In this document: piece by piece, positions 1 through 37,810 of the stretch
Layout: every line of letters begins with the position of its first letter
Position numbering within the stretch: position 1 is the first letter of the stretch
IMG/VR virus record: IMGVR_UViG_3300014541_000011
Location: 1 to 37,810 of that record
Reading direction: 5' to 3' (one strand)
DNA length: 37,810 bases
Source of the DNA: a virus
Notes under the pieces: generated by a model
Seen by the model: only the letters and a program-made list of their open reading frames with translations
Told to the model about the DNA's origin: nothing
The model's database searches: none
Translations under genes and position numbers: made by a program

Positions 1-239
1 CTGCCGAGGAAATGGTGGACATGTCTTTGCCCGTTTGGTCCGACAAATACGGCGAAGAAAACGGCATACTCGGCGAAGTAAATATAGATGGCGGGCCTAA
101 TAGAGGGATTGCTTTCCCGCAACCGACAACAGGCGATTACCGTGGCTATACGTTCAAGGTCCATATTCACGGTGGCAATCAACCGTGGATTAATTTAGGC
201 CCGTCCGTTGCTTGTCACGCTTGGCGACGCCAACAGTAA
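1..239 (+). CDS. 3' part (variable tip V1a) of wrap-around collar-domain tail fibre gene that starts at 37352; ends ...GGNQPWINLGPSVACHAWRRQQ*
   Basis: Same frame as ORF at 37352..37810 through the 77-nt terminal overlap. C-terminus matches the phage tail collar domain end (GxxQPxxNxxP..Y.W). Confidence 0.75.
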   Translation, partial: AEEMVDMSLPVWSDKYGEENGILGEVNIDGGPNRGIAFPQPTTGDYRGYTFKVHIHGGNQPWINLGPSVACHAWRRQQ

Positions 240-456
240 GTGGCTAAACATGGAGGCATATTATTGTGAGGTTGATCGTTGCCCGCCCTGAATCTAATTA
301 AGTCAAGCTCATTTCGCAACATTCCCGTGGCATAGCCATGCCCCTCTCTTACCGATTGGTCATAGGAAAAGACGCCTTTGGCGAAGATTGGCATCCCTTC
401 TTCTTGTTGAGGAATGTTTTGTAATTCTCCTTCTATTTTTGCCATTTCATCGGCAG
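215..456 (-). CDS. Promoter-less alternative C-terminal tail-fibre cassette V1b (75 aa after crossover repeat 442..456), collar-domain C-half ...GNDQPHNNMPPCLATYCWRRQA*
   Basis: TGA stop immediately upstream in frame and no RBS. In-frame repeat CTGCCGAtGAAATGG (rc of 442..456) matches CTGCCGAgGAAATGG in the parent gene at 37734..37748. Paralogous to V1a, similar length. Confidence 0.7.
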
Positions 457-687
457 CTATTCATTTCTAAACCACGAATAGCAGGCAACAGCAGGTTGCA
501 TATTCTGATGTGGTTGACCGCCACCAAAGTTTAGATTGATAATTACCCCTTCCATATTTTCAGTGGCGGCGGACGGAAACTTATTGCCCGTATTATTAAC
601 GGTAAAGGCGCCACTCAGAGTTTGCTTGTTACCCCACCGCAAAATCGTGCCAATTGAACCTTTGATGGGTGCGGATTCTTCGGCAGT
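457..687 (-). CDS. Promoter-less alternative C-terminal tail-fibre cassette V1c (...GGGQPHQNMQPAVACYSWFRNE*) beginning at in-frame repeat ACTGCCGAaGAA (rc of 676..687)
   Basis: Frame is open upstream of the TTG listed in the ORF track, and no ATG is present. In-frame TAEE at the repeat is identical to TAEE in the parent gene. Collar-type C-terminus. Confidence 0.65.
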   Translation of the reverse strand, partial: TAEESAPIKGSIGTILRWGNKQTLSGAFTVNNTGNKFPSAATENMEGVIINLNFGGGQPHQNMQPAVACYSWFRNE

Positions 688-739
688 TCGGACAGCTCGG
701 ACAGGTTCGGACTGAGCCAGTCCGTTTTAGTCCGTTTTA
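688..739. repeat. Phased short repeats: TCGGAC x3 at 9-10 bp spacing (688,697,707) followed by inverted GTCCGTTTTA x2 (720..729, 730..739)
   Basis: Read directly from the sequence. Lies between the outermost fibre cassette site and the 3' end of the recombinase gene. Confidence 0.6.
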
Positions 740-837
740 ACCCCTTGACAGCCTCGTTAAGCACAAATTAAGCACAGTGGCAATGCCCATACACCTAGGC
801 TACAAGCCATTTACAGCCTTCACATCTAACTAATTAA

Positions 838-1791
838 TCATAGCTTATCTACAACTCGGCGCAATTCGGCAAGCGTCTTATGCGTGTAAACGCCCTTTGT
901 GACGCCCTTTCGGGCGTGTCCCAGAATCATCTGGCACGCCGTATCACTGGCGCCCGTGGAATCAAGCATGGATGCGCAGGTATGACGGCATTCGTGCGGG
1001 GTGTGGTGCATTTTTAAAGCCTTCATGACCTTATCAAAAAGCCGTCTGAACCCGTCGTATGTCAAGTGGTATCCGCCTTGAGCCTTGAGCGACTCAAGAA
1101 AGGGCAAGATCTTCCTTGCGATGGGGACCTTGCGCACGCCCGCCGCTGTCTTGCTGTGCTTGATGTCTAGGTATCGCTCCCGAATCTTGATGCTGGCAGG
1201 GCGGAGGGCAAGGAGTTCACCGACTCGTAGGCCCGTATAAATGAGGATTAACACGGCCTGAACGTCGGGATCATCAGCCGCCTTCCATAACCTATTGATT
1301 TCTCGGACCGTGAACGGTCGCTTGACGTGGACGGGGACGTGGGGCTTGATTTCGACGAACCTAGAATAGTCGACGGCCACAAGGTCCCGCTTCATGGCCC
1401 ACTTATACAGCTGACTGAGTAAAACACGGGCCTTCTTCTGCGTGGCATAGCCCGCTTCAATGCCGTCCATGGCGGCCTGTAAATCCTCGTATCTCAGTGA
1501 TTCCATGGGCCTATCGTGGAGCGGAGCAAGGTGCCTGTAACTACTCATATAGGCGGAAACACTTGAACGTGACAGTCCTTCAAAGTGGCGTTCTGACCAC
1601 TTTTCGTAGCCCTGGGAGAACGTTTCGGATTGACCGCCATTCAATTTCAAAAGAAAAGAGAGCGCTTCAACATGGGAAGAAAAATACCCTACTGCCTTTT
1701 GTTTTCCGTTAATGCTTTTCTTGACAACGAAGGGCCGCCGCCTGTTCCCACTTAGCTTATAAACCGTTCCGAACCCATTAGGTAATTTCAT
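838..1791 (-). CDS. Tyrosine site-specific recombinase (317 aa from ATG with GGAGG RBS; 322 aa from the upstream ATG); candidate shufflon invertase (Rci-like role)
   Basis: R...HxxR...Y motifs (TGLRVGEL, HECRHTCAS, GHARKGVTKGVYTH). Placed directly beside the inverted fibre cassettes and separate from the int/xis lysogeny pair. Confidence 0.7.
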   Translation of the reverse strand: MKLPNGFGTVYKLSGNRRRPFVVKKSINGKQKAVGYFSSHVEALSFLLKLNGGQSETFSQGYEKWSERHFEGLSRSSVSAYMSSYRHLAPLHDRPMESLRYEDLQAAMDGIEAGYATQKKARVLLSQLYKWAMKRDLVAVDYSRFVEIKPHVPVHVKRPFTVREINRLWKAADDPDVQAVLILIYTGLRVGELLALRPASIKIRERYLDIKHSKTAAGVRKVPIARKILPFLESLKAQGGYHLTYDGFRRLFDKVMKALKMHHTPHECRHTCASMLDSTGASDTACQMILGHARKGVTKGVYTHKTLAELRRVVDKL

Positions 1792-1829
1792 TTCATCAAC
1801 CTCCATGAAAAGAATAAGGAGAACGTATC

Positions 1830-2392: not shown

Positions 2393-2901
2393 AGCCGACG
2401 TTTGTTGATTACGGGCTTTGGTTTAAGCCGCTCCAAGAGCGGACTGCCACGGACTTGATTGTGATCCACCACACGGGGAATCCGACGGATGACGACTTGA
2501 GCGCCGAAGCAATCCACGAATCCCACCTTGCGCAAGATTGGGCGGGAATCGGCTATCATTTTGTCATCAGAAAGGACGGCTCCATTGAACTAGGACGGCC
2601 CATGGATACTGTAGGGGCGCACGCATACGGTTATAATAGCCGTTCCATCGGGATTCATGTTTGCGGTAACTTTGAAGTCGGAGAACCGACACCGCAACAG
2701 ATTGAATCCTGCTCCATCCTCGTTGCTTGGCTGGCGGATGAATACGGCATTGACATTGACACTGATACCGTTGTCGGACACCGTGACTTAATGGCAACCG
2801 CTTGTCCGGGTGACAACCTGTATAGCCAGCTACAGACTATCCGTGGCAAGGCCATATGGTATCAACAGCACTACGACGAGGACGGGCAGTACCATGATTA
2901 G
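2386..2901 (+). CDS. N-acetylmuramoyl-L-alanine amidase (amidase_2/PGRP fold) endolysin, no cell-wall-binding domain
   Basis: HHTGNP..., GYHFVI, GAHAYGYNSRSIGIHVCGNF and HRDL...CPG motifs typical of T7-lysozyme/PGRP amidases. Only 171 aa. Confidence 0.8.
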   Translation: MLKPTFVDYGLWFKPLQERTATDLIVIHHTGNPTDDDLSAEAIHESHLAQDWAGIGYHFVIRKDGSIELGRPMDTVGAHAYGYNSRSIGIHVCGNFEVGEPTPQQIESCSILVAWLADEYGIDIDTDTVVGHRDLMATACPGDNLYSQLQTIRGKAIWYQQHYDEDGQYHD

Positions 2902-3418
2902 GCTTCAAACAGGCATACGAATTAAGTTTTTCGCCTATACCTTTTTATGCTTCGTCATTGGCTTTTTGACGGGGTTTAGCTGGCGTGCGATTCATCACAA
3001 GTGTCAGACTCAAAAAGCCACTCAGACGGAAGATGTGGCGGTGGAATCCAAAATAGAAACCAAAACGATTGTTCGCTACGTGGAAAAGGAGTCTCCGCAG
3101 GACGCTGATGTGGATGTGACCGTGCCAAAGCAGACTTTGACCGTCAAAGTCAACGGCGAAACTCAAACCTTTAATAAATCCGACAACGAGCAATATATTT
3201 TGGACAAAAATAAAATCGCCCTGGAGCAGCAGTCCAAGGCGAGCGTTGATATCAAGGTACCCGTCATCGATGAGACACGCAAATGGGAGCTTGGCGTAGG
3301 CGTAGATAAGAATGGCCGCCCCGCTGGCATGGTCGGGTTCCCTGTCAAGGGACACGTTGGCGGATGGGTCGCAGGCAGTAAGGGTAACGTCATGGGCGGG
3401 ATCAAAGTCCACTTTTAA
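2894..3418 (+). CDS. Membrane-anchored protein (N-terminal TM plus soluble domain) ending the lysis cassette
   Basis: ATG overlaps the amidase stop (ATGATTAG). TM helix FFAYTFLCFVIGFLTGF. Confidence 0.4.
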   Translation: MIRLQTGIRIKFFAYTFLCFVIGFLTGFSWRAIHHKCQTQKATQTEDVAVESKIETKTIVRYVEKESPQDADVDVTVPKQTLTVKVNGETQTFNKSDNEQYILDKNKIALEQQSKASVDIKVPVIDETRKWELGVGVDKNGRPAGMVGFPVKGHVGGWVAGSKGNVMGGIKVHF

Positions 3419-3707: not shown

Positions 3708-3842
3708 AATGAAAAGAAAAACGCTATTAGGGATTATGCTTGGAGCGACAGTTATTGGTAATTGGGGGCGCTGGGATGCCTTATCCATAGGAGCTGTAGT
3801 ATGCCTATCCATCGCCGTTGGTATGGAGGTGTTTCGAAAATG
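3708..3842 (+). CDS. 44-aa membrane peptide (MKRKTLLGIMLGATVIGNWGRWDALSIGAVVCLSIAVGMEVFRK), translationally coupled to the downstream HTH gene
   Basis: ATGA overlap with the ORF at 3839. Two hydrophobic segments. No clear RBS. Confidence 0.35.
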
Positions 3843-4040
3843 AAACTTGCTGATGTGATGACGACGCAAGAAGCGAGCGCATTGTACGGGCGTACGGCGC
3901 ATACAATCAAGCAGGCATGTGAATCTGGACGGCTCACATCGGAAGAATGTCGTAAGTCCGGGAAGATGTGGCTCGTTACCCGTGCGGGCATGGAAAAGCT
4001 ATACGGCCCGACAGACGGCAAAAATACGGCAAAAAAATGA
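3839..4040 (+). CDS. Small HTH DNA-binding protein, excisionase (Xis)/HTH_17-like
   Basis: EASALYGRTAHTIKQACESGRL helix-turn-helix plus a W-containing wing. Convergent with and adjacent to the integrase. Confidence 0.55.
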
Positions 4041-4200: not shown

Positions 4201-4231
4201 AATGTGACGGCAGAAATACGGCAAAAATAAT

Positions 4232-5299
4232 TTAGTATAGAGATTCAATGGCTTTAGCTGCAACCTTATTGATGTCGTCCGTGTAATTGACGTAAACCTT
4301 GCAAACGGTGGCCACAGTGTCCCCTAAGACATGAGCGACAAGGTTAATATCTCCCGTCCTGGACAACAGGAGAGTGGCAAAGGTGTGGCGTAACGCATGG
4401 ATGGACCTACCGGGAAAGTTGCGACCAATCACACGATTCAGTTCAGTCTGAACAGAGTGCCCTTTATCAATTGGGAAAACAGTTCCTGTAATCTCCATTG
4501 GGCGTGTGTCACGCCACTTTTTTAGTTTCTGCAGGACAAGCGGAGAAGCCGGAATGGTTCGGTGGCTGTTTCGTGTTTTGCATGGACCAATACCGTAGCT
4601 ATTTTGACCAATGAGCGTGTATTGCTGGGTGATGGTAATGGTCTTTTTAAACCAGTCGATGGCATTCCAGGGTAGCCCATAAATTTCACCGAACCGCATA
4701 CCTGTGTTAGCGGCCAAGGTAATGACCAAACTATAAATCGAATTAAATTCAACAATATCTTGGAGCTTGGAAAGTTCTTCCTTCGTGAAGGCACGCAGGA
4801 TAGTAGGATTCTTTGATTGTGGGAGTTTAATTCCTTTAGCAGGATTAGAGGGGATAATCTTGTATATCTCCTTTGCATGCTCAAGCACCGGCGAGATGCA
4901 GCGTAGATGAGCCCTCTTAGAACTGGCCTTCCCTTCAATCTGCATCAAAGCGTTGGTAAGATTTGCCGTGGTAATATCCCTAATTGGCACAGTGGCAAGA
5001 TTTCCCATTTTTTTCAAGGCCAGGGCGTAATTCTTCAATGTATTTGGAGCTAAAAATTCCTTTTTGTCACGCATAAAGATGGGTAAAAATTGTTGAAGTG
5101 AAATATTTTTAAGGGTAGCGTCGTCCGTCAGGCCTTCCAATTCCTTAACTTGCGCAAGCAGCTCATCCTGATAGCGGCGGGCCTCTCTTTGATTTTTAAA
5201 TCCTTGCTTTGTCTTTTGTCGCCACTTGGTGCCGACTTTGTAGGACAGGATCAGGCAGACACCGCCATTTTTCTCACGATACGAAAAGGTATATTCCAT
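4232..5299 (-). CDS. int: Tyrosine integrase (phage integrase family, 355 aa)
   Basis: C-terminal catalytic motifs HALRHTFAT...LGDT...Y. AAAGGAG RBS. Sits beside the Xis-like gene and the repressor module. Confidence 0.85.
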   Translation of the reverse strand: MEYTFSYREKNGGVCLILSYKVGTKWRQKTKQGFKNQREARRYQDELLAQVKELEGLTDDATLKNISLQQFLPIFMRDKKEFLAPNTLKNYALALKKMGNLATVPIRDITTANLTNALMQIEGKASSKRAHLRCISPVLEHAKEIYKIIPSNPAKGIKLPQSKNPTILRAFTKEELSKLQDIVEFNSIYSLVITLAANTGMRFGEIYGLPWNAIDWFKKTITITQQYTLIGQNSYGIGPCKTRNSHRTIPASPLVLQKLKKWRDTRPMEITGTVFPIDKGHSVQTELNRVIGRNFPGRSIHALRHTFATLLLSRTGDINLVAHVLGDTVATVCKVYVNYTDDINKVAAKAIESLY

Positions 5300-5385: not shown

Positions 5386-5421
5386 CCCTGCTGGTACCGC
5401 AAATACCAGCAGGGATTTTTT
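5386..5421 (+). terminator. Strong hairpin CCCTGCTGGTA-ccgcaaa-TACCAGCAGGG followed by ATTTTTTATTT
   Basis: 11-bp perfect stem plus a T run on the + strand, between int and the exonuclease gene. Confidence 0.6.
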
Positions 5422-6466
5422 ATTTATCTTCTCTGATTTTGTACTGATGCACATAATCAGCAGGAAGCGGTGGTGCAAGCTTCTTTTCTATGATGGTGGC
5501 AATAAGATCTTTTTTCAGACCCTTCGTGGGAAGCCCGGCGTCTGCCAGAATCTTTTGAAGGTCTGCCTTATGCAGCTTACTCAATTCAATCTCATTGGAA
5601 ACATCTACAAGGCGGGCATATGTTCCCGGATTCACAAAGTCCCTAATGAAATCTTCTTTTGAGTAATTTTTTGGCTTTTCCTTGTATAAGGATTCGTAGG
5701 AAATCCCACCAGCGTAAGTCTTTGCCTCATACAAGACAGCCTTGACAAAAAGTTCCTCAGAAAACCGGTACAGAGATTTGATGATGGGGACTGTCCCTTT
5801 ATCCATGGTATCCTGCATGATTTGGGCACATGCCTTGGCATCAGACAGGGATTCATGGTGATTCAAGTCGAGATTGAGATATTTACAGATGGTGTCCAGC
5901 TTGTAGTTTTCCAGATTCCTGTAGGTGTATCTGGCACTCTGCAGAGAGTCGGCAAAGAGAAGCGGTTTATCCAGGGTGATTCCTTCCGTCTTAGCGGTAT
6001 AGATCAGACAGCCCATATCAAAGTTGGCGTTGTGTGCCACCAGGGGGAACCCTTTGATGAAATCGCGGAAGGTGGATTCATAGAATTCTTTGAAGGTGGG
6101 AGAATTCCGAACTTTTGACCAGGTGATTCCATGGACATAGGAATTCGTGAATTTTGCTTCCGGAGGCTTAATCAAAGAAGTGACAGAACCAGTGAACTGC
6201 CGGTTTTCAACTTTTACGGCGGAAATACTACAGATTGAATATGGCTGCGCATTGGCAGTTTCCACATCGAATGCCACAAAGCTGTCCATCGGGACCCTGT
6301 ATTCATTTGTCACCGGCAGTCTTACCCTTGCAAATCCCTTGTATTCGGGAAGCCTAAATGGGGCCAGTTCATCTGGCTTCATGGGAGATTCTGCAATCAT
6401 CCTGTCCTTTGCTTTTTTATTTAAAATGACAACAACGAAAATAACAATGACAATTAATAATGCCAT
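5420..6466 (-). CDS. Membrane-anchored DnaQ-like (DEDDh) 3'-5' exonuclease with C-terminal SAP domain
   Basis: N-terminal TM ALLIVIVIFVVVIL. Exo motifs FDVETA, HNANFDMGCL and H..SLSDAKAC. C-terminal DLQKILADAGLPTKGLKKDLIATIIE (SAP-like). Confidence 0.6.
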   Translation of the reverse strand: MALLIVIVIFVVVILNKKAKDRMIAESPMKPDELAPFRLPEYKGFARVRLPVTNEYRVPMDSFVAFDVETANAQPYSICSISAVKVENRQFTGSVTSLIKPPEAKFTNSYVHGITWSKVRNSPTFKEFYESTFRDFIKGFPLVAHNANFDMGCLIYTAKTEGITLDKPLLFADSLQSARYTYRNLENYKLDTICKYLNLDLNHHESLSDAKACAQIMQDTMDKGTVPIIKSLYRFSEELFVKAVLYEAKTYAGGISYESLYKEKPKNYSKEDFIRDFVNPGTYARLVDVSNEIELSKLHKADLQKILADAGLPTKGLKKDLIATIIEKKLAPPLPADYVHQYKIREDK

Positions 6467-6475
6467 AATATCACC

Positions 6476-6742
6476 CTATTCCCCATCTTTGATGTAGATT
6501 TCTAAGCCTTCTGAAATCTGGAAGTTATTCGAGCTGGCATGACAGGCATTCTCAATGGAATCCACATCTTCTTCTTTAAACAAATCATCCCCTACGATGT
6601 GGTTGAGTTCGTGCTTCATGGCCAGTCTTTTCTTCTCATCGGATAAATTGTCATTGATGATGATTGTATAGGAGTCGTCCGGATTCTGCTGGACGACTGC
6701 CGGAACGCTGGGTGGCAGATCCTGATAGGTGACGATGATCAT
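6476..6742 (-). CDS. ImmA/IrrE-family metallopeptidase (short form, HEXXH)
   Basis: HELNHIVGDD motif. Overlaps the upstream XRE repressor gene by 4 nt (ATGA). Confidence 0.6.
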   Translation of the reverse strand: MIIVTYQDLPPSVPAVVQQNPDDSYTIIINDNLSDEKKRLAMKHELNHIVGDDLFKEEDVDSIENACHASSNNFQISEGLEIYIKDGE

Positions 6743-15075: not shown

Positions 15076-15831
15076 ATGGGCAAGGAAGAGGGGTTTGTTA
15101 GGCTATACCGATCCCTTATCGATGATCCGATATGGCTCAATTCGACACCAGCACAGAAAACAGTGCTCATCACGCTTCTCTGCATGGTGACCTGGAAACC
15201 TAGGCAATGGGACGTTTTGGGCAAGCCATTTGTCTTGCAGCCTGGTCAATGCTTCACTTCTTTGTCCAAACTCGCCAAAAAAGCCGGCAAGGGAATAACG
15301 GTGGACGTCGTAAGAAAAGCGCTTCAGCGTTTTGAAAATCTCGGTTTTAGCACAATGAAGAGTACAAAGCGAGGAAGGCTCATAACCATAGAGAAATGGC
15401 GGGTCTACCAACTTGACGACGAAGAGGAGACCAAAGAGGAGACCAAAGCGAGACCAAAGCGAGACCAAAGCGAGACCAAAGCGAGACCAAAGCGAGACCA
15501 AACCAATAAACAAGAAAGTAATAAAGTAATAAGGGAAGAAAGTAATAATAACCCCCTAGGGGGGATCATTGAAAACTACACCTCAAATCCTGCCCTTATC
15601 TCCGCCCTGGAAGATTGGGTGGAGTCCAGAAAGGCATCGAGGAGACCGACAACCAAAAGGGCTGTCGAGATCAACCTCAGGAAGCTGGATCAATGGGCTC
15701 CGAATGACGATGAACAAAAAATAGCAATTGTCGAAGAGACAATTGCACTAGGACTTGCTGCATTCGTGCAACCAAAAGAGAAGGTCGAAAAAATCAAGAC
15801 GGAGCCCAAGGATATGGGCATCCCGTGCTAG
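15076..15831 (+). CDS. DnaD-like replication initiator / phage replisome organiser (contains internal origin-like repeats)
   Basis: N-terminal FVRLYRSLIDDPIW... (phage_rep_org_N-like). Internal iterons. Confidence 0.65.
   Translation: MGKEEGFVRLYRSLIDDPIWLNSTPAQKTVLITLLCMVTWKPRQWDVLGKPFVLQPGQCFTSLSKLAKKAGKGITVDVVRKALQRFENLGFSTMKSTKRGRLITIEKWRVYQLDDEEETKEETKARPKRDQSETKARPKRDQTNKQESNKVIREESNNNPLGGIIENYTSNPALISALEDWVESRKASRRPTTKRAVEINLRKLDQWAPNDDEQKIAIVEETIALGLAAFVQPKEKVEKIKTEPKDMGIPC
15424..15502. repeat. Tandem iterons: 2 x GAGGAGACCAAA then 5 x GCGAGACCAAA, followed by AT-rich AGTAATAA repeats and palindrome CCCCCTAGGGGG (15552..15563)
   Basis: Read directly from the sequence. Located inside the initiator gene. 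Confidence 0.8.
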
Positions 15832-35016: not shown

Positions 35017-36216
35017 ATGGCAGAATTTCACAATATCACCGTCACCAATGACGGGATGAAGCTGATAGCCCTGGCCAGCGCCATGCAGAAGCCAATTGTG
35101 TTTGACCGCATGGACATCGGGGATAGCAGACCTACGGATGCCAGCAAGGTGGCGTCCCTGACCGCTGTGGTCAACAAGCGCATCGAAGCGACCATCTCCG
35201 ATATCGGAGTGGTCACCAATGCCAATGTCAGCGAAGCTAGATACAGAATCCTGGGCAAATACAGCAACAGCAGCGTGACAACGGGATTTAAGCTGTCCGA
35301 AGTGGGCGTGATTGCCCACGTCGAGTCAAACTACTACCAGGATTCAGGCTGGAACGGCTACGCCGGAGAGAACTTGCTCTTCGGCTATTTTTATGCGGAT
35401 GAGGGGAAAGAAGACTGGCTGCCGTCCAAAGATATGCTCATGGACGATTTGCAGATGGGCGCCTATTTTACGGTCAGCAATGCCACCAGCATTGCTGTCT
35501 ACATCAACGAAGAAGATAACGTTAGCCGCTTCGATTTCAACGTCCATCTGAGCGACAAAAACGCCCACTCCGATGTGATCGGCTGCACAAGCACGTCCGA
35601 CGGCGTTCGAGGATTTGTTCCGAAACCGGAAAAAGGGGACGGGGAAAAATTCCTGTCAGCCGAAGGGAAGTGGAAAAAGGCAAAAATGACCCCCTTAGAA
35701 CTCGTCAATATCCTATATCCAAAGGGCATCATCCTTCCGTTTGCAGACGGTACGAATCCAAATGAGCTATGGCAAGGCACGACTTGGAAGCGCACGTTGC
35801 AGGGTCGTGTTCCTATCGGAGCTGGCGATTACTGGGAGAATGGGAAAAAGTTTAGCTATTCCGTAGGGGATACGGGCGGCGAAGCTGAACACAAACTCAC
35901 TGAGAGTGAATTGGCAAAAATCACGCCTAAAATTGCGTCGTCAACGCTGGCTGTATCTAGGGTTGCACAAATTCATGGGGTCGTCACGAAGTACTCATCG
36001 ACAAACCAATACAAAGATGTTCCGAAAAATGGTTGGTCGGGAACAGTTGTCAGCGGTGAAGAATCGGGCGGAGGGACCAAGGACCACGGAATTGAGGTCC
36101 GCAACGTCCTTGAAACCTTGTCCCCTTCTATCGCAATAGAATCTATCGGTGGCGACGAAAGCCACGAAAACAGGCCCCCGTTCCAAGGCGTTTGTTATTG
36201 GGTTCGCACCCAGTAG
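35017..36216 (+). CDS. Tail fibre protein with C-terminal tail-collar domain (constant part to about 35915, then variable tip V2a)
   Basis: GGAGTGA RBS. Collar-domain motifs ...GEAEHKLTESEL... and a terminal HENRPPFQGVCYWVRTQ. Confidence 0.8.
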   Translation: MAEFHNITVTNDGMKLIALASAMQKPIVFDRMDIGDSRPTDASKVASLTAVVNKRIEATISDIGVVTNANVSEARYRILGKYSNSSVTTGFKLSEVGVIAHVESNYYQDSGWNGYAGENLLFGYFYADEGKEDWLPSKDMLMDDLQMGAYFTVSNATSIAVYINEEDNVSRFDFNVHLSDKNAHSDVIGCTSTSDGVRGFVPKPEKGDGEKFLSAEGKWKKAKMTPLELVNILYPKGIILPFADGTNPNELWQGTTWKRTLQGRVPIGAGDYWENGKKFSYSVGDTGGEAEHKLTESELAKITPKIASSTLAVSRVAQIHGVVTKYSSTNQYKDVPKNGWSGTVVSGEESGGGTKDHGIEVRNVLETLSPSIAIESIGGDESHENRPPFQGVCYWVRTQ

Positions 36217-36475
36217 GCAACGCCGCTATACGGCATCCTGTTCTCATGAGCGGCCCCGCCGCCCGTCGTGGAAATGGTGATGTTGTGGGAATGATTGCCA
36301 GCGTACGAGATAGGTTCAGTTTTCCATCTTCTGGACCCGTCACGGCCTTTGTGAGCGCAGTTATTGTATTGCCCCCAGTCGTCGCCTAATGAATTGCTTA
36401 GTTGAATATTGTGATTGTGATCCCCTGCAACTGCCGCCGTGGCGAGGTGGCTGTGAGGTGCCAGTTCACTCTCAG
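36195..36475 (-). CDS. Promoter-less alternative tip cassette V2b: (ESEL)APHSHLATAAVAGDHNHNIQ...GNHSHNITISTTGGGAAHENRMPYSGVAYWVRTQ*
   Basis: Frame opens at CTGAGAGTGAAcTGGC (rc of 36460..36475), homologous to 35898..35915. No start codon. HxH repeats. Absent from the ORF track because it has no Met. Confidence 0.7.
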
Positions 36476-36479
36476 CCCG

Positions 36480-36780
36480 TTAAGCCGTTCTTTCCCAATA
36501 TGCCACGCCCTGATACGGTTGGCGGTTTTCATGTCCTTCACCAGTCCCAGACGTGGCCAAAGAAACGGTGACAGCGTGGGAATGATTGCCATCTGTTGTG
36601 GTTTTTCCGAGGTAGTTATCGTGATCTGTTCCGGATGCCCCAGCATACCCACCTTGTGACGAATATTCGCCCAATGGATTGTTTTGTTTCACGTCACCTC
36701 TCCCACCGTGGTAATGAGCGCCGTTAGTACTGCAAGCCGCAGAAGCTCTGTGGGTGTGAGGCGCCAATTCACTCTCAGTG
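36480..36780 (-). CDS. Promoter-less alternative tip cassette V2c: (TESEL)APHTHRASAACSTNGAHYHGG...GNHSHAVTV...HENRQPYQGVAYWERTA*
   Basis: 18-nt perfect repeat CACTGAGAGTGAATTGGC (rc of 36763..36780) identical to 35898..35915 and in frame. The TTG in the ORF track is not a real start. Confidence 0.7.
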
Positions 36781-36792
36781 AAAGGAGATAAA

Positions 36793-37116
36793 ATGCACGT
36801 TTTTCAAATTTTGAACAATGAAGTCACCGTTATTGACGGTGACAAAACCTATATTGATTCCTATGACAATTTCGTGGCTGACGGGGGACGGCATGACATC
36901 CCCCGAAAAGTCATATACGACGAAGCCCAAAAATGCTGTGTGGTGGAAGACAGGTTCCTTCCGTATCCAAACTTTGAATTTGAGGACATTATCGCAACCC
37001 TTGATTCCCTTGTCGAAGCAAAGGAAAAGCGGGAGCCGCAACCAGAGGCCCCAGCCATGGACCCCAAAATCGCCCTTACAGACGATTACAACGAAAGCGC
37101 AAGGGGATTTGTCTAG
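36793..37116 (+). CDS. Hypothetical protein (possible fibre assembly factor)
   Basis: AAAGGAG RBS. Confidence 0.4.
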   Translation: MHVFQILNNEVTVIDGDKTYIDSYDNFVADGGRHDIPRKVIYDEAQKCCVVEDRFLPYPNFEFEDIIATLDSLVEAKEKREPQPEAPAMDPKIALTDDYNESARGFV

Positions 37117-37226
37117 CGCCTACACTATCGCTTGTCTGAGAGGCGATTTGACGGTACAGGAAAGTATTAAAAGCGATTTTGAAGCGTTACAAGAAGCCTA
37201 CAAGACGGAAATGGAGGAATTGAAAG

Positions 37227-37355
37227 ATGAAATTTAAGCTTCCAAAGCGTTGCCCCTATTGCGCTCACAAGCTGAGCGAAGAAGAGAAATGCGTGAACCC
37301 TGAATGCATTGCGTATGATCAGAAAAAAGACGAAAAGGAGCGTGAAGAAGAATGA
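37227..37355 (+). CDS. 42-aa zinc-ribbon protein (CPYC...CVNPEC)
   Basis: GGAGG RBS. ATGA overlap with the collar gene. Confidence 0.4.
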   Translation: MKFKLPKRCPYCAHKLSEEEKCVNPECIAYDQKKDEKEREEE

Positions 37356-37810
37356 CCACGAGAGCATTAGTACCGAATGCCGATGGGGAAGGCTCCCTGG
37401 GTATTGAAGGGTTAAATTGGGGAGCTATGTACGTCTCGTCCCCGGAAAAAGACGACGATTCTCAGAAAGTGCCGTCGACGGCGTGGGTGCGGCAAATCAT
37501 CGCAGAAGAAATCCAGAAGGCTTCCCTTTTCACCCTCGAACGCATCTTTCCCGTCGGCAGCATCTACACATCGCTTACTGACTCCCGCAATCCTTCTGAG
37601 ATACTAGGATTTGGCACATGGGAACCCTTGCCGGCAGGCTACACCCTCATCGCCCAAGGCCAAGGCACGGACCAGTTTGGCAGTTTTGAGTACGTAGCTG
37701 GACAAAAGTACGGCGAACGAATGCACCAACTCACTGCCGAGGAAATGGTGGACATGTCTTTGCCCGTTTGGTCCGACAAATACGGCGAAGAAAACGGCAT
37801 ACTCGGCGAA
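37352..37810 (+). CDS. 5' part of wrap-around collar-domain tail fibre gene (about 206 aa in total; continues at 1..239)
   Basis: Collar N-half FPVGSIY...LPAGY...GERMHQLTAEEM. In frame across the circular junction. Confidence 0.75.
   Translation, partial: MTTRALVPNADGEGSLGIEGLNWGAMYVSSPEKDDDSQKVPSTAWVRQIIAEEIQKASLFTLERIFPVGSIYTSLTDSRNPSEILGFGTWEPLPAGYTLIAQGQGTDQFGSFEYVAGQKYGERMHQLTAEEMVDMSLPVWSDKYGEENGILGE
37734..37810. repeat. 77-nt terminal overlap identical to 1..77 (circular contig signature)
   Basis: Exact identity, read directly. Confidence 0.9.

Follow-up and report, generated by a model that had tools for sequence, protein, structure and literature searches.

Record IMGVR_UViG_3300014541_000011 of IMG/VR comprises 37,810 nucleotides of viral DNA, all of which was analysed here and is referred to as the window, and our subject within it is a minus-strand tyrosine recombinase gene at positions 838..1791 (stop codon 838-840) whose 317-amino-acid product we propose to be the invertase of the neighbouring tail-fibre tips. 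Bases 1-77 of the window recur at 37734-37810, and this 77-nt terminal overlap implies that the stretch is a circular phage genome of 37,733 bp. An earlier account drawn from the letters alone, hereafter the sequence-only reading, had placed the recombinase gene between the tip cassettes and the lysis genes, and this is where it lies: silent tips and their sites occupy 215-686 on the minus strand, and the lysis module, which consists of two small membrane-protein (holin-like) genes and an amidase gene, spans 1830-2901. Although the list of open reading frames (ORFs) extends the recombinase ORF to 838..1806 (322 amino acids), we prefer the start at 1791 over that at 1806 because GGAGG stands 8 nt before that ATG and all homologues begin MKLPNG.

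The encoded protein matches Phage_integrase in Pfam (9e-18) and phrog_1 'integrase' in PHROG (8.5e-53), and it combines the catalytic fold with a SAM-like core-binding domain N-terminal to the catalytic domain, as is expected of the tyrosine recombinase superfamily. Its putative catalytic set, R189, K214, H266, R269, H292 and Y302, which was assigned by sequence motifs and not by alignment to a solved recombinase, is invariant across 35 homologues. An AlphaFold model of the protein (predicted local distance difference test score, pLDDT, of 80) finds its best structural matches in Tn1549 Int, lambda Int, Brujita Int and XerA. Matches, putative catalytic residues, model and ribosome-binding context together agree with the identification of a tyrosine recombinase starting at 1791 in the sequence-only reading. 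At the N-terminus, the model contains strands at residues 8-12, 21-27 and 30-37 and a helix at 40-50 (pLDDT ~62-88), and an extra strand-strand-strand-helix domain is thus predicted, in the order typical of arm-binding domains; residues 1-65 have no Pfam family match, and no domain-only structural match was listed for them. The window encodes just two tyrosine recombinases, the second being a conventional integrase at 4232-5299, and the 21% identity between them rules out a recent duplication of the integrase as the origin of the recombinase. No Resolvase domain was found in the recombinase by Pfam scan, and a tblastn search of the window with an unverified Mu Gin sequence found no Gin-like serine invertase at E ≤ 1. 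A promoter and terminator scan of positions 1-2100 gave counts within about two standard deviations of the shuffled expectation.

Stop-to-stop translation of the region beyond the recombinase stop codon uncovered two plus-strand fibre genes and four promoterless minus-strand tips, which we designate c1a, c1b, c2a and c2b. Fibre gene 1 (35017..36216, plus strand) encodes 399 amino acids with a Phage_tail_fib N-terminus and a Gp10_C domain, and the first site of what we call set 1 lies in it at 35900-35915 (plus strand), inside the codons L-T-E-S-E-L-A. Behind it follow the silent cassettes c1a (36195..36468, minus strand), with its site CTGAGAGTGAACTGGC at 36460..36475 (minus strand), and c1b (36480..36771, minus strand), with its site CTGAGAGTGAATTGGC at 36763..36778 (minus strand); the c1b site region forms a 19-nt perfect inverted repeat with 35897-35915. 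Fibre gene 2 (206 amino acids overall; Gp10_C, 5e-16) is preceded by the ribosome-binding site AAGGAG and crosses the circular junction, such that its constant 5' part lies at 37352..37810 (plus strand) and its 3' part, with the currently expressed tip, at 1..239 (plus strand), where the first set-2 site is found at 1-16 (= 37734-37749). Its silent cassettes are c2a (215..449, minus strand; in-frame fusion of 207 amino acids), with the site CTGCCGATGAAATGGC at 441..456 (minus strand), and c2b (457..679, minus strand), with the site CTGCCGAAGAATCCGC at 671..686 (minus strand). The latter provides an alternative C-terminus for fibre 2 that has a weak Gp10_C match and ends in ...ACYSWFRNE, and its fusion comprises 203 amino acids with a single stop. 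All six fibre-tip fusions are in frame, each with a single stop.

The three set-1 sites (35900-35915 on the plus strand, 36460-36475 and 36763-36778 on the minus strand) share the core pattern CTGAGAGTGAAYTGGC, and the three set-2 sites (1-16 on the plus strand, 441-456 and 671-686 on the minus strand) share the core pattern CTGCCGAnGAA...; in the fibres, they fall in the codons L-T-x-x-E-(L/M). The set-1 sequence CTGAGAGKGAAYTGGC has three matches in the window against 0.11 expected from shuffling, and the set-2 sequence CTGCCGANGAANNNGC, with at most one mismatch, has four listed matches against a shuffled expectation of 0.30, all of them in the fibre region; since the contig overlap makes one site appear both at 1-16 and at 37734-37749, the distinct set-2 sites number three and not four. 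A right-hand half, GAAnTGGC, is common to both sets, whereas the 7-nt centres differ, being CTGAGAG for fibre 1 and CTGCCGA for fibre 2. Two different centres were also present in every two-set phage examined (the window and loci L002, L008, L010, L012 and L115, where L numbers denote loci of relatives).

Relatives carry these cassettes in other arrangements. Two loci of separate metagenomic origin, L002 and L003, have one and the same recombinase protein (77% identical to that of the window); between them, a 447-bp and a 569-bp segment, one per cassette set, are cleanly inverted at 100% identity. The window and L003 are collinear. Compared with L002, the window is inverted at 36475-35900 and 456-201, and compared with L008 across the whole 35916-36763 block, and these inversions end at the predicted sites 35900-35915, 36460-36475, 36763-36778 and 441-456. 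As a consequence, tips that are silent in the window are expressed elsewhere: the c1a-type tip is the expressed one in L002, the c1b-type tip (96% identical and inverted) is joined to the fibre gene in L008, and c2a has a counterpart in L002 that is 92% identical and inverted. In the Acidaminococcus intestini prophage, eight loci (L115-L122) share one identical recombinase and have flanks that are 99.4-100% identical between isomers; L121 bears a 580-bp inversion in set 1, L122 a 794-bp inversion spanning the entire set 2, and L116-L118 a reshuffled order that needs more than one inversion. Across the isomers flanks are 99-100% identical and end points coincide with the in-frame repeats. With three sites per fibre in mixed orientation, alternative in-frame C-termini, and both single and whole-set inversions as well as reshuffling among relatives, the region has the makeup of a shufflon.

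The isomers also indicate where exchange may take place. In both sets of the L002/L003 pair, a polymorphic base just 3' of the 7-nt centre moves with the variable side and the left flank stays with the constant side, and in A. intestini the exchange was mapped within CCACCGATGA; from these polymorphisms exchange appears to map within or left of the 7-nt centres. No inter-set rearrangement was seen among the isomers compared. A further difference between L002 and L003 concerns a tip cassette that is present in the former (4590-4804; compared 4578-4815) and missing from the latter (3195-3245). Two directly repeated sites bound this cassette and the L003 junction is the exact predicted product, so that site-specific deletion, or its reverse, seems to occur, and the difference is consistent with site-specific excision or capture. 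In a separate place, L003 (5620-5665) is without 447 nt of the fibre-1 constant part found in L002 (7240-7687); the junction there, between CAGGA and ACTGGC, resembles a right half-site, and the loss may stem from recombination at a pseudo-site or from faulty assembly. The window's contig begins exactly with the first base of the 7-nt core CTGCCGA in the fibre-2 site, which suggests that inversion heterogeneity in the sample created a branch at which assembly stopped. Several short-read contigs of relatives stop just past the recombinase gene, and these ends, together with the window's start on the fibre-2 core, are compatible with heterogeneity at the locus without proving it.

The recombinase and the cassettes keep company well beyond these isomers. 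Among loci from IMG/VR and bacterial genomes, every recombinase at least 52% identical to that of the window and with enough flanking sequence is followed, just past the 3' end of its gene, by a Gp10_C-type fibre with oppositely oriented tips. A blind self-comparison recovered opposite-strand paralogues in 17 of 19 loci at or above 52% identity, counting only those with a full 3.5 kb of downstream sequence, as opposed to roughly 3 of 75 loci at or below 41% identity, where an automatic screen placed none immediately downstream of the gene. The pairing is maintained across 52-90% identity and on two phage backbones, one of the contractile-tail type and the other encoding a GH25 lysin and a polyvalent protein of 1882 amino acids. 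A different tip family, QWG...IAIGK, accompanies recombinases of 41-47% identity in loci from Phascolarctobacterium, Anaerovibrio and an IMG/VR contig (L023 9400-10460, L042 9650-10244 and L045 9720-10240), with the repeat ACAGTGGGGAT and invertible tips that end IAIGK/F/H; by sequence, this clade seems to have changed both its site and its target fibre type. Homologues that are 35-39% identical look like ordinary integrases: that of Butyrivibrio phage Arawn sits between the lysis and early genes, and three loci of 35-38% identical homologues abut tRNA-Leu genes. In a neighbour-joining tree, 92% bootstrap supports the split of the family from Rci, XerD, FimB/E, lambda Int and the integrase of the window, and the integrase-position group receives 79%. 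Related recombinases occur in Acidaminococcus, Megasphaera, Mitsuokella, Allisonella, Phascolarctobacterium and Anaerovibrio genomes, and the best 120 database clusters are all at least 56% identical to the recombinase, several of them with more than 100 member sequences. The closest homologue of an isolated phage in the phage database is 36-37% identical, and hence no characterised phage carries this system.

For comparison, the conventional integrase gene (4232..5299, minus strand), which lies outside the switch, encodes Arm-DNA-bind_4, SAM_3 (weak, sub-threshold) and Phage_integrase domains and is the only one of the window's two recombinases with a recognisable arm-binding Pfam domain. It adjoins an Xis-like gene at 3762-4040 (HTH_59/HTH_17) and an HTH_3 repressor/Cro-like pair belongs to the same lysogeny module; these domain assignments confirm the grouping of int, Xis-like gene and repressor module that the sequence-only reading had made. 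The homology that integrated relatives share with the window breaks off at 3418, beside this integrase, and in L002 and L004 host genes (AhpC, transporters) come after the lysis genes, from which it follows that the attachment region lies between the lysis genes and the 4232-5299 gene. In integrated relatives the 838-1791-type recombinase is found 2-5.5 kb inside the prophage, away from the position of an integrase. Genome comparison thus supports the view that the 4232-5299 gene is the likely integrase and that the 838-1791 gene is internal to the prophage. Just downstream of the integrase gene, 22-nt direct repeats (GACGGCARAAATACGGCAAAAA, each internally tandem) are present at 4014-4035 and 4206-4227, in a region that is conserved in L033, and they are plausible candidates for integrase arm sites bracketing an attP core.

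Based on these data, we consider it very probable that the 838-1791 protein is a site-specific DNA invertase that swaps the C-terminal receptor-binding tips of two tail-fibre proteins, and the role of invertase rather than integrase that the sequence-only reading had given it draws support from the inversion isomers, the cassette association and the integrase features of the other gene. In the mechanism that we envisage, the site in the expressed gene would recombine with one of the inverted sites of the silent cassettes, so that the intervening DNA is flipped and the constant body of the fibre acquires a different tip; as each of the two fibres has three tips to choose from, as many as nine combinations could arise. 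The 7-nt centre would serve as the strand-exchange (overlap) region, as the mapped cross-overs would allow, and if it does, the difference between the centres would prevent exchange between the two sets even though a single enzyme acts on both. Such a switch would be expected to change host range.

Several observations weigh against this assignment. The protein belongs to an integrase family, with 35-38% identical relatives that lie beside tRNA-Leu or in the canonical integrase position. The cassette-linked proteins group together in the tree with only 15-20% bootstrap; as a check on the sequence-only reading, the phylogeny succeeds in setting the family apart from Rci, Xer, Fim and lambda Int proteins and does not deliver a firm cassette-linked clade. 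The sites have no dyad symmetry, which leaves the binding mode hard to assign, and some right arms are degenerate, c2b for instance having GAATCCGC. The isomers come from assembled contigs, in which some rearrangements, the 447-nt deletion of L003 among them, may be artefacts. L033, which is about 91% identical across the fibre region, keeps its cassettes in the window's arrangement alongside a decayed recombinase gene (a shortened, out-of-frame remnant at 2738-3379), meaning that the arrangement can persist without the enzyme. Finally, the protein is tied to the inversions by adjacency and co-occurrence, and it is from these that we infer the recombinase to be their catalyst.

Among alternatives, the one that survives best holds that the gene is a second integrase or a relic of prophage recombination, that its adjacency to the cassettes is incidental, and that the inversions are made in trans by the 4232-5299 integrase or by a host invertase. 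We judge this improbable. It would sit well with a family that is annotated as integrase and includes clear integrases, and with the arm-binding-like order of the predicted N-terminal domain, and a trans-acting invertase has been proposed for another phage locus (PMC6109161). Incidental linkage, however, does not explain a pairing that recurs on two unrelated backbones across 52-90% identity, nor why in L026, L039 and L040 the first site comes directly after the recombinase stop codon. In addition, the lysis genes separate the gene from the prophage end, the other integrase occupies the junction region, and no integration-type target (tRNA, host junction) adjoins the gene in the clade loci, although no tRNA scan was made of the clade at or above 52% identity.

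We give still less credence to the notion that the contigs differ through rearrangements that arose long ago and became fixed, or through misassembly at inverted repeats, and that the recombinase is now idle. All isomers are indeed taken from assemblies, several contigs break in this region, and both the L033 cassettes beside a decayed gene and the odd deletion in L003 would be accommodated by it. Yet flanks that are 99.4-100% identical, together with identical recombinases, in independent samples imply recent and repeated events; without exception, the break points lie in the 16-19-nt sites and leave the reading frame intact; repeats of that length are much shorter than assembler k-mers and would not by themselves cause misjoins; and the gene in the window is intact with all putative catalytic residues present. 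A role as an Xer-like resolvase of phage genome multimers, unrelated to the fibres, is scarcely credible: the best curated-family matches are the XerA, XerD and XerC models and XerD is the best reference recombinase by BLAST, but the scores lie far below the family cut-offs of 220-335 bits (64.6 against 220 bits for XerA, 58.5 against 329.6 for XerD), no dif-like palindromic site adjoins the gene, and the association with the cassettes would stay unexplained.

The nearest precedent for a phage-encoded tyrosine recombinase that acts as a fibre-tip invertase is the Rin shufflon of Bifidobacterium breve and B. longum prophages, the first phage-encoded tyrosine-family invertase described to act on receptor-binding-protein tips (Mavrich et al. 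2018, PMC6109161). Rin-type arrangements are also present in Eggerthella lenta prophages (PMC8778435), and surveys place tail fibres among the targets of programmed inversion (PMC9881135). The sequence-only reading had called a tyrosine-recombinase-driven tail-fibre switch on in-frame coding repeats unusual; the in-frame repeats are borne out by our analysis, while the claim to rarity has to yield to these precedents. Like the system described here, Rin places a tyrosine-family recombinase beside promoterless C-terminal cassettes of a receptor-binding protein, each starting with a short asymmetric repeat, has a separate lambda-like integrase elsewhere in the genome, and shows isomers between prophages and virions (PMC6109161). 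The two differ in that Rin, compared by description, is armless and XerD-like, whereas an additional N-terminal domain is predicted for the protein studied here, which clusters with the integrases of prophages. They also differ in their sites, the Rin site rix being the 11-bp TTCCCTAACCC and the sites here spanning 16-19 nt in L-T-x-x-E-L/M codons. In addition, Rin acts on a single receptor-binding protein in a siphovirus of Actinobacteria, whereas the Negativicutes phages considered here have a contractile-tail-type module in which two fibre genes each come with a site family of their own. The principle is thus already known from Rin, and what is distinctive here are the two putatively insulated cassette sets with their different 7-nt cores, the integrase-like architecture, the conserved motif beside the gene, and the host range in Negativicutes, in whose gut phages the system is abundant.

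A second comparison, that with rci of the R64/IncI1 shufflon (Rci, sfx, pilV), had also been drawn in the sequence-only reading, and it holds for the anatomy and not for the enzyme. In both systems the gene of a tyrosine recombinase adjoins a region of multiple inversion in which C-termini of an adhesin are exchanged in frame. Of the two arms of an sfx site, one is conserved and the other is not, and the spacer is 7 bp long, a layout that resembles the 7-nt centre, shared right arm and variable left side found here. In BLASTP, however, Rci (query verified at 100% against NC_005014.1) is 26% identical to the recombinase over 164 amino acids (E 1e-5). Rci comprises 384 amino acids with a long C-terminal extension; the 317-amino-acid protein is without this extension, is not a relative of Rci, and groups instead with Bacillota prophage integrases. 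The R64 target is a conjugative pilus adhesin in place of a phage fibre, the site sequences are unrelated, and, unlike in R64, deletion between direct sites appears to occur here. The Gin, Cin, Min and Pin systems (Mu, P1, p15B and e14) follow the same logic and gene order, the invertase being encoded alongside a segment whose inversion replaces the variable C-terminus of a tail fibre and so changes host range. These are serine recombinases that need an enhancer and Fis, whereas the chemistry here would be of the tyrosine type. In hsdS switches, a tyrosine recombinase acting on short intra-coding repeats shuffles in-frame specificity domains. Such switches, which belong to type I restriction (PsrA being a tyrosine-type invertase, PMC9881135), share the enzyme class with the present system and differ from it in target protein and context. 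Outside the cassette-linked group, the closest relatives are Bacillota prophage integrases of the 'MKLPNGYGSVYKLSGKRR...' family, which have 35-39% full-length identity and the same N-terminal motif. They occupy the canonical integrase position or lie beside tRNA-Leu, without oppositely oriented fibre paralogues nearby.

Between the recombinase stop codon and the distal site lie two repeated non-coding elements. The first comprises two tandem copies of TGTGCTTAA at 757..776 (minus strand), downstream of the recombinase stop, which are the only exact copies in the window. The corresponding motif, TGTG[ACT][GT]T[AG]A[CT], recurs in 17 of 20 related loci whose flanks have otherwise diverged, at set distances from the recombinase stop codon (overlapping it, at +10, and between +62 and +78), and is about 490-fold enriched there, a post hoc figure given that the pattern was derived from the same sequences. 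It is absent from L026, L039 and L040, the three loci in which the first site directly follows the stop codon. The second element, at 688..740 (minus strand), abuts the distal site and consists of short tandem repeats, two copies of AAAACGGACT followed by three of C(A/T)GTCCGA, at a spacing of 9-11 nt; a hairpin at 708-724 (plus strand) overlaps it. Analogous phased repeats are found in relatives, with three copies of ATAAAATGG in L008, L038 and L015 and five CTGTCCGAA-type units in L015. The CTGTCCGA repeat is not enriched across the window as a whole, and only the local cluster stands out. Together, the motif copies and the phased repeats form a candidate accessory or arm-type binding array.

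A broader reading that joins these strands is tentative and, as a whole, rather doubtful. It supposes that an integrase-type recombinase lineage became dedicated fibre-tip invertases in Negativicutes phages, keeping an arm-binding-like N-terminal domain and an accessory array (TGTGCTTAAC motifs and phased repeats); that one enzyme would serve two insulated shufflons in which the choice of partner is set only by the 7-nt overlap, yielding 3 x 3 fibre sets; and that the sites would also allow integron-like excision and capture of cassettes as circles. Were this true, such exchange of circles would account for the spread of the module, recombinase and cassettes together, among unrelated phage backbones.

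Outside E. coli phages and diversity-generating retroelements, little has been charted of how gut phages switch host range, and a tyrosine-recombinase fibre switch of the kind proposed here is common in Negativicutes prophages. The database name 'integrase' for these proteins can mislead the prediction of prophage boundaries and lifestyle, and the invertible region breaks short-read assemblies. If the proposed mechanism is correct, two site families under one enzyme would constitute natural orthogonal sites set by the 7-nt centre, which could possibly be of use in engineering. An invertase that retains integrase-like features also raises the question of directionality, which lambda-type systems derive from their arms and accessory proteins; how such an enzyme is made into an invertase was likewise asked by the authors of the Rin study (PMC6109161).

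The remainder of the window is that of a temperate phage, with its lysogeny module and a baseplate and fibre module of the contractile-tail type. Tail-module homologues in relatives are annotated as YqbQ, DUF2577, sheath initiator, baseplate J and Mu gp48. Because the baseplate J and gp48-like proteins are 97% and 90% identical, respectively, to their counterparts in the prophage of A. intestini DSM 21505, the host is probably Acidaminococcus or a close relative in the Negativicutes, as far as sequence similarity can tell. A search of the window for tRNA genes found none. Between the two cassette sets, and outside both invertible segments, two small plus-strand genes (36778..37355) encode a 147-amino-acid-type protein and a 42-amino-acid zinc-ribbon-like protein. 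The former gene (36778-37237) is frameshifted near 37104-37107, where the window has GGGG and L002 and L033 have GGG, and is split into two overlapping frames; the extra G could be either a sequencing error or a real frameshift. The recombinase start (1791) and the start of the first lysis gene (1830) are divergent and only 38 nt apart; late transcription heading for the lysis genes would need to run antisense through the cassettes and the recombinase gene, or begin inside the recombinase gene. In the early or replication region, an 11-nt unit, GAGACCAAAGC, is repeated in a tandem array of about seven copies at 15428-15513. Between the integrase and the repressor, 5420-6466 and 6476-6742 (both minus strand) encode an RNase_T-type exonuclease with a SAP domain, and a small gene upstream of the repressor carries an HExxH motif that, by eye, is that of an ImmA-like protease.

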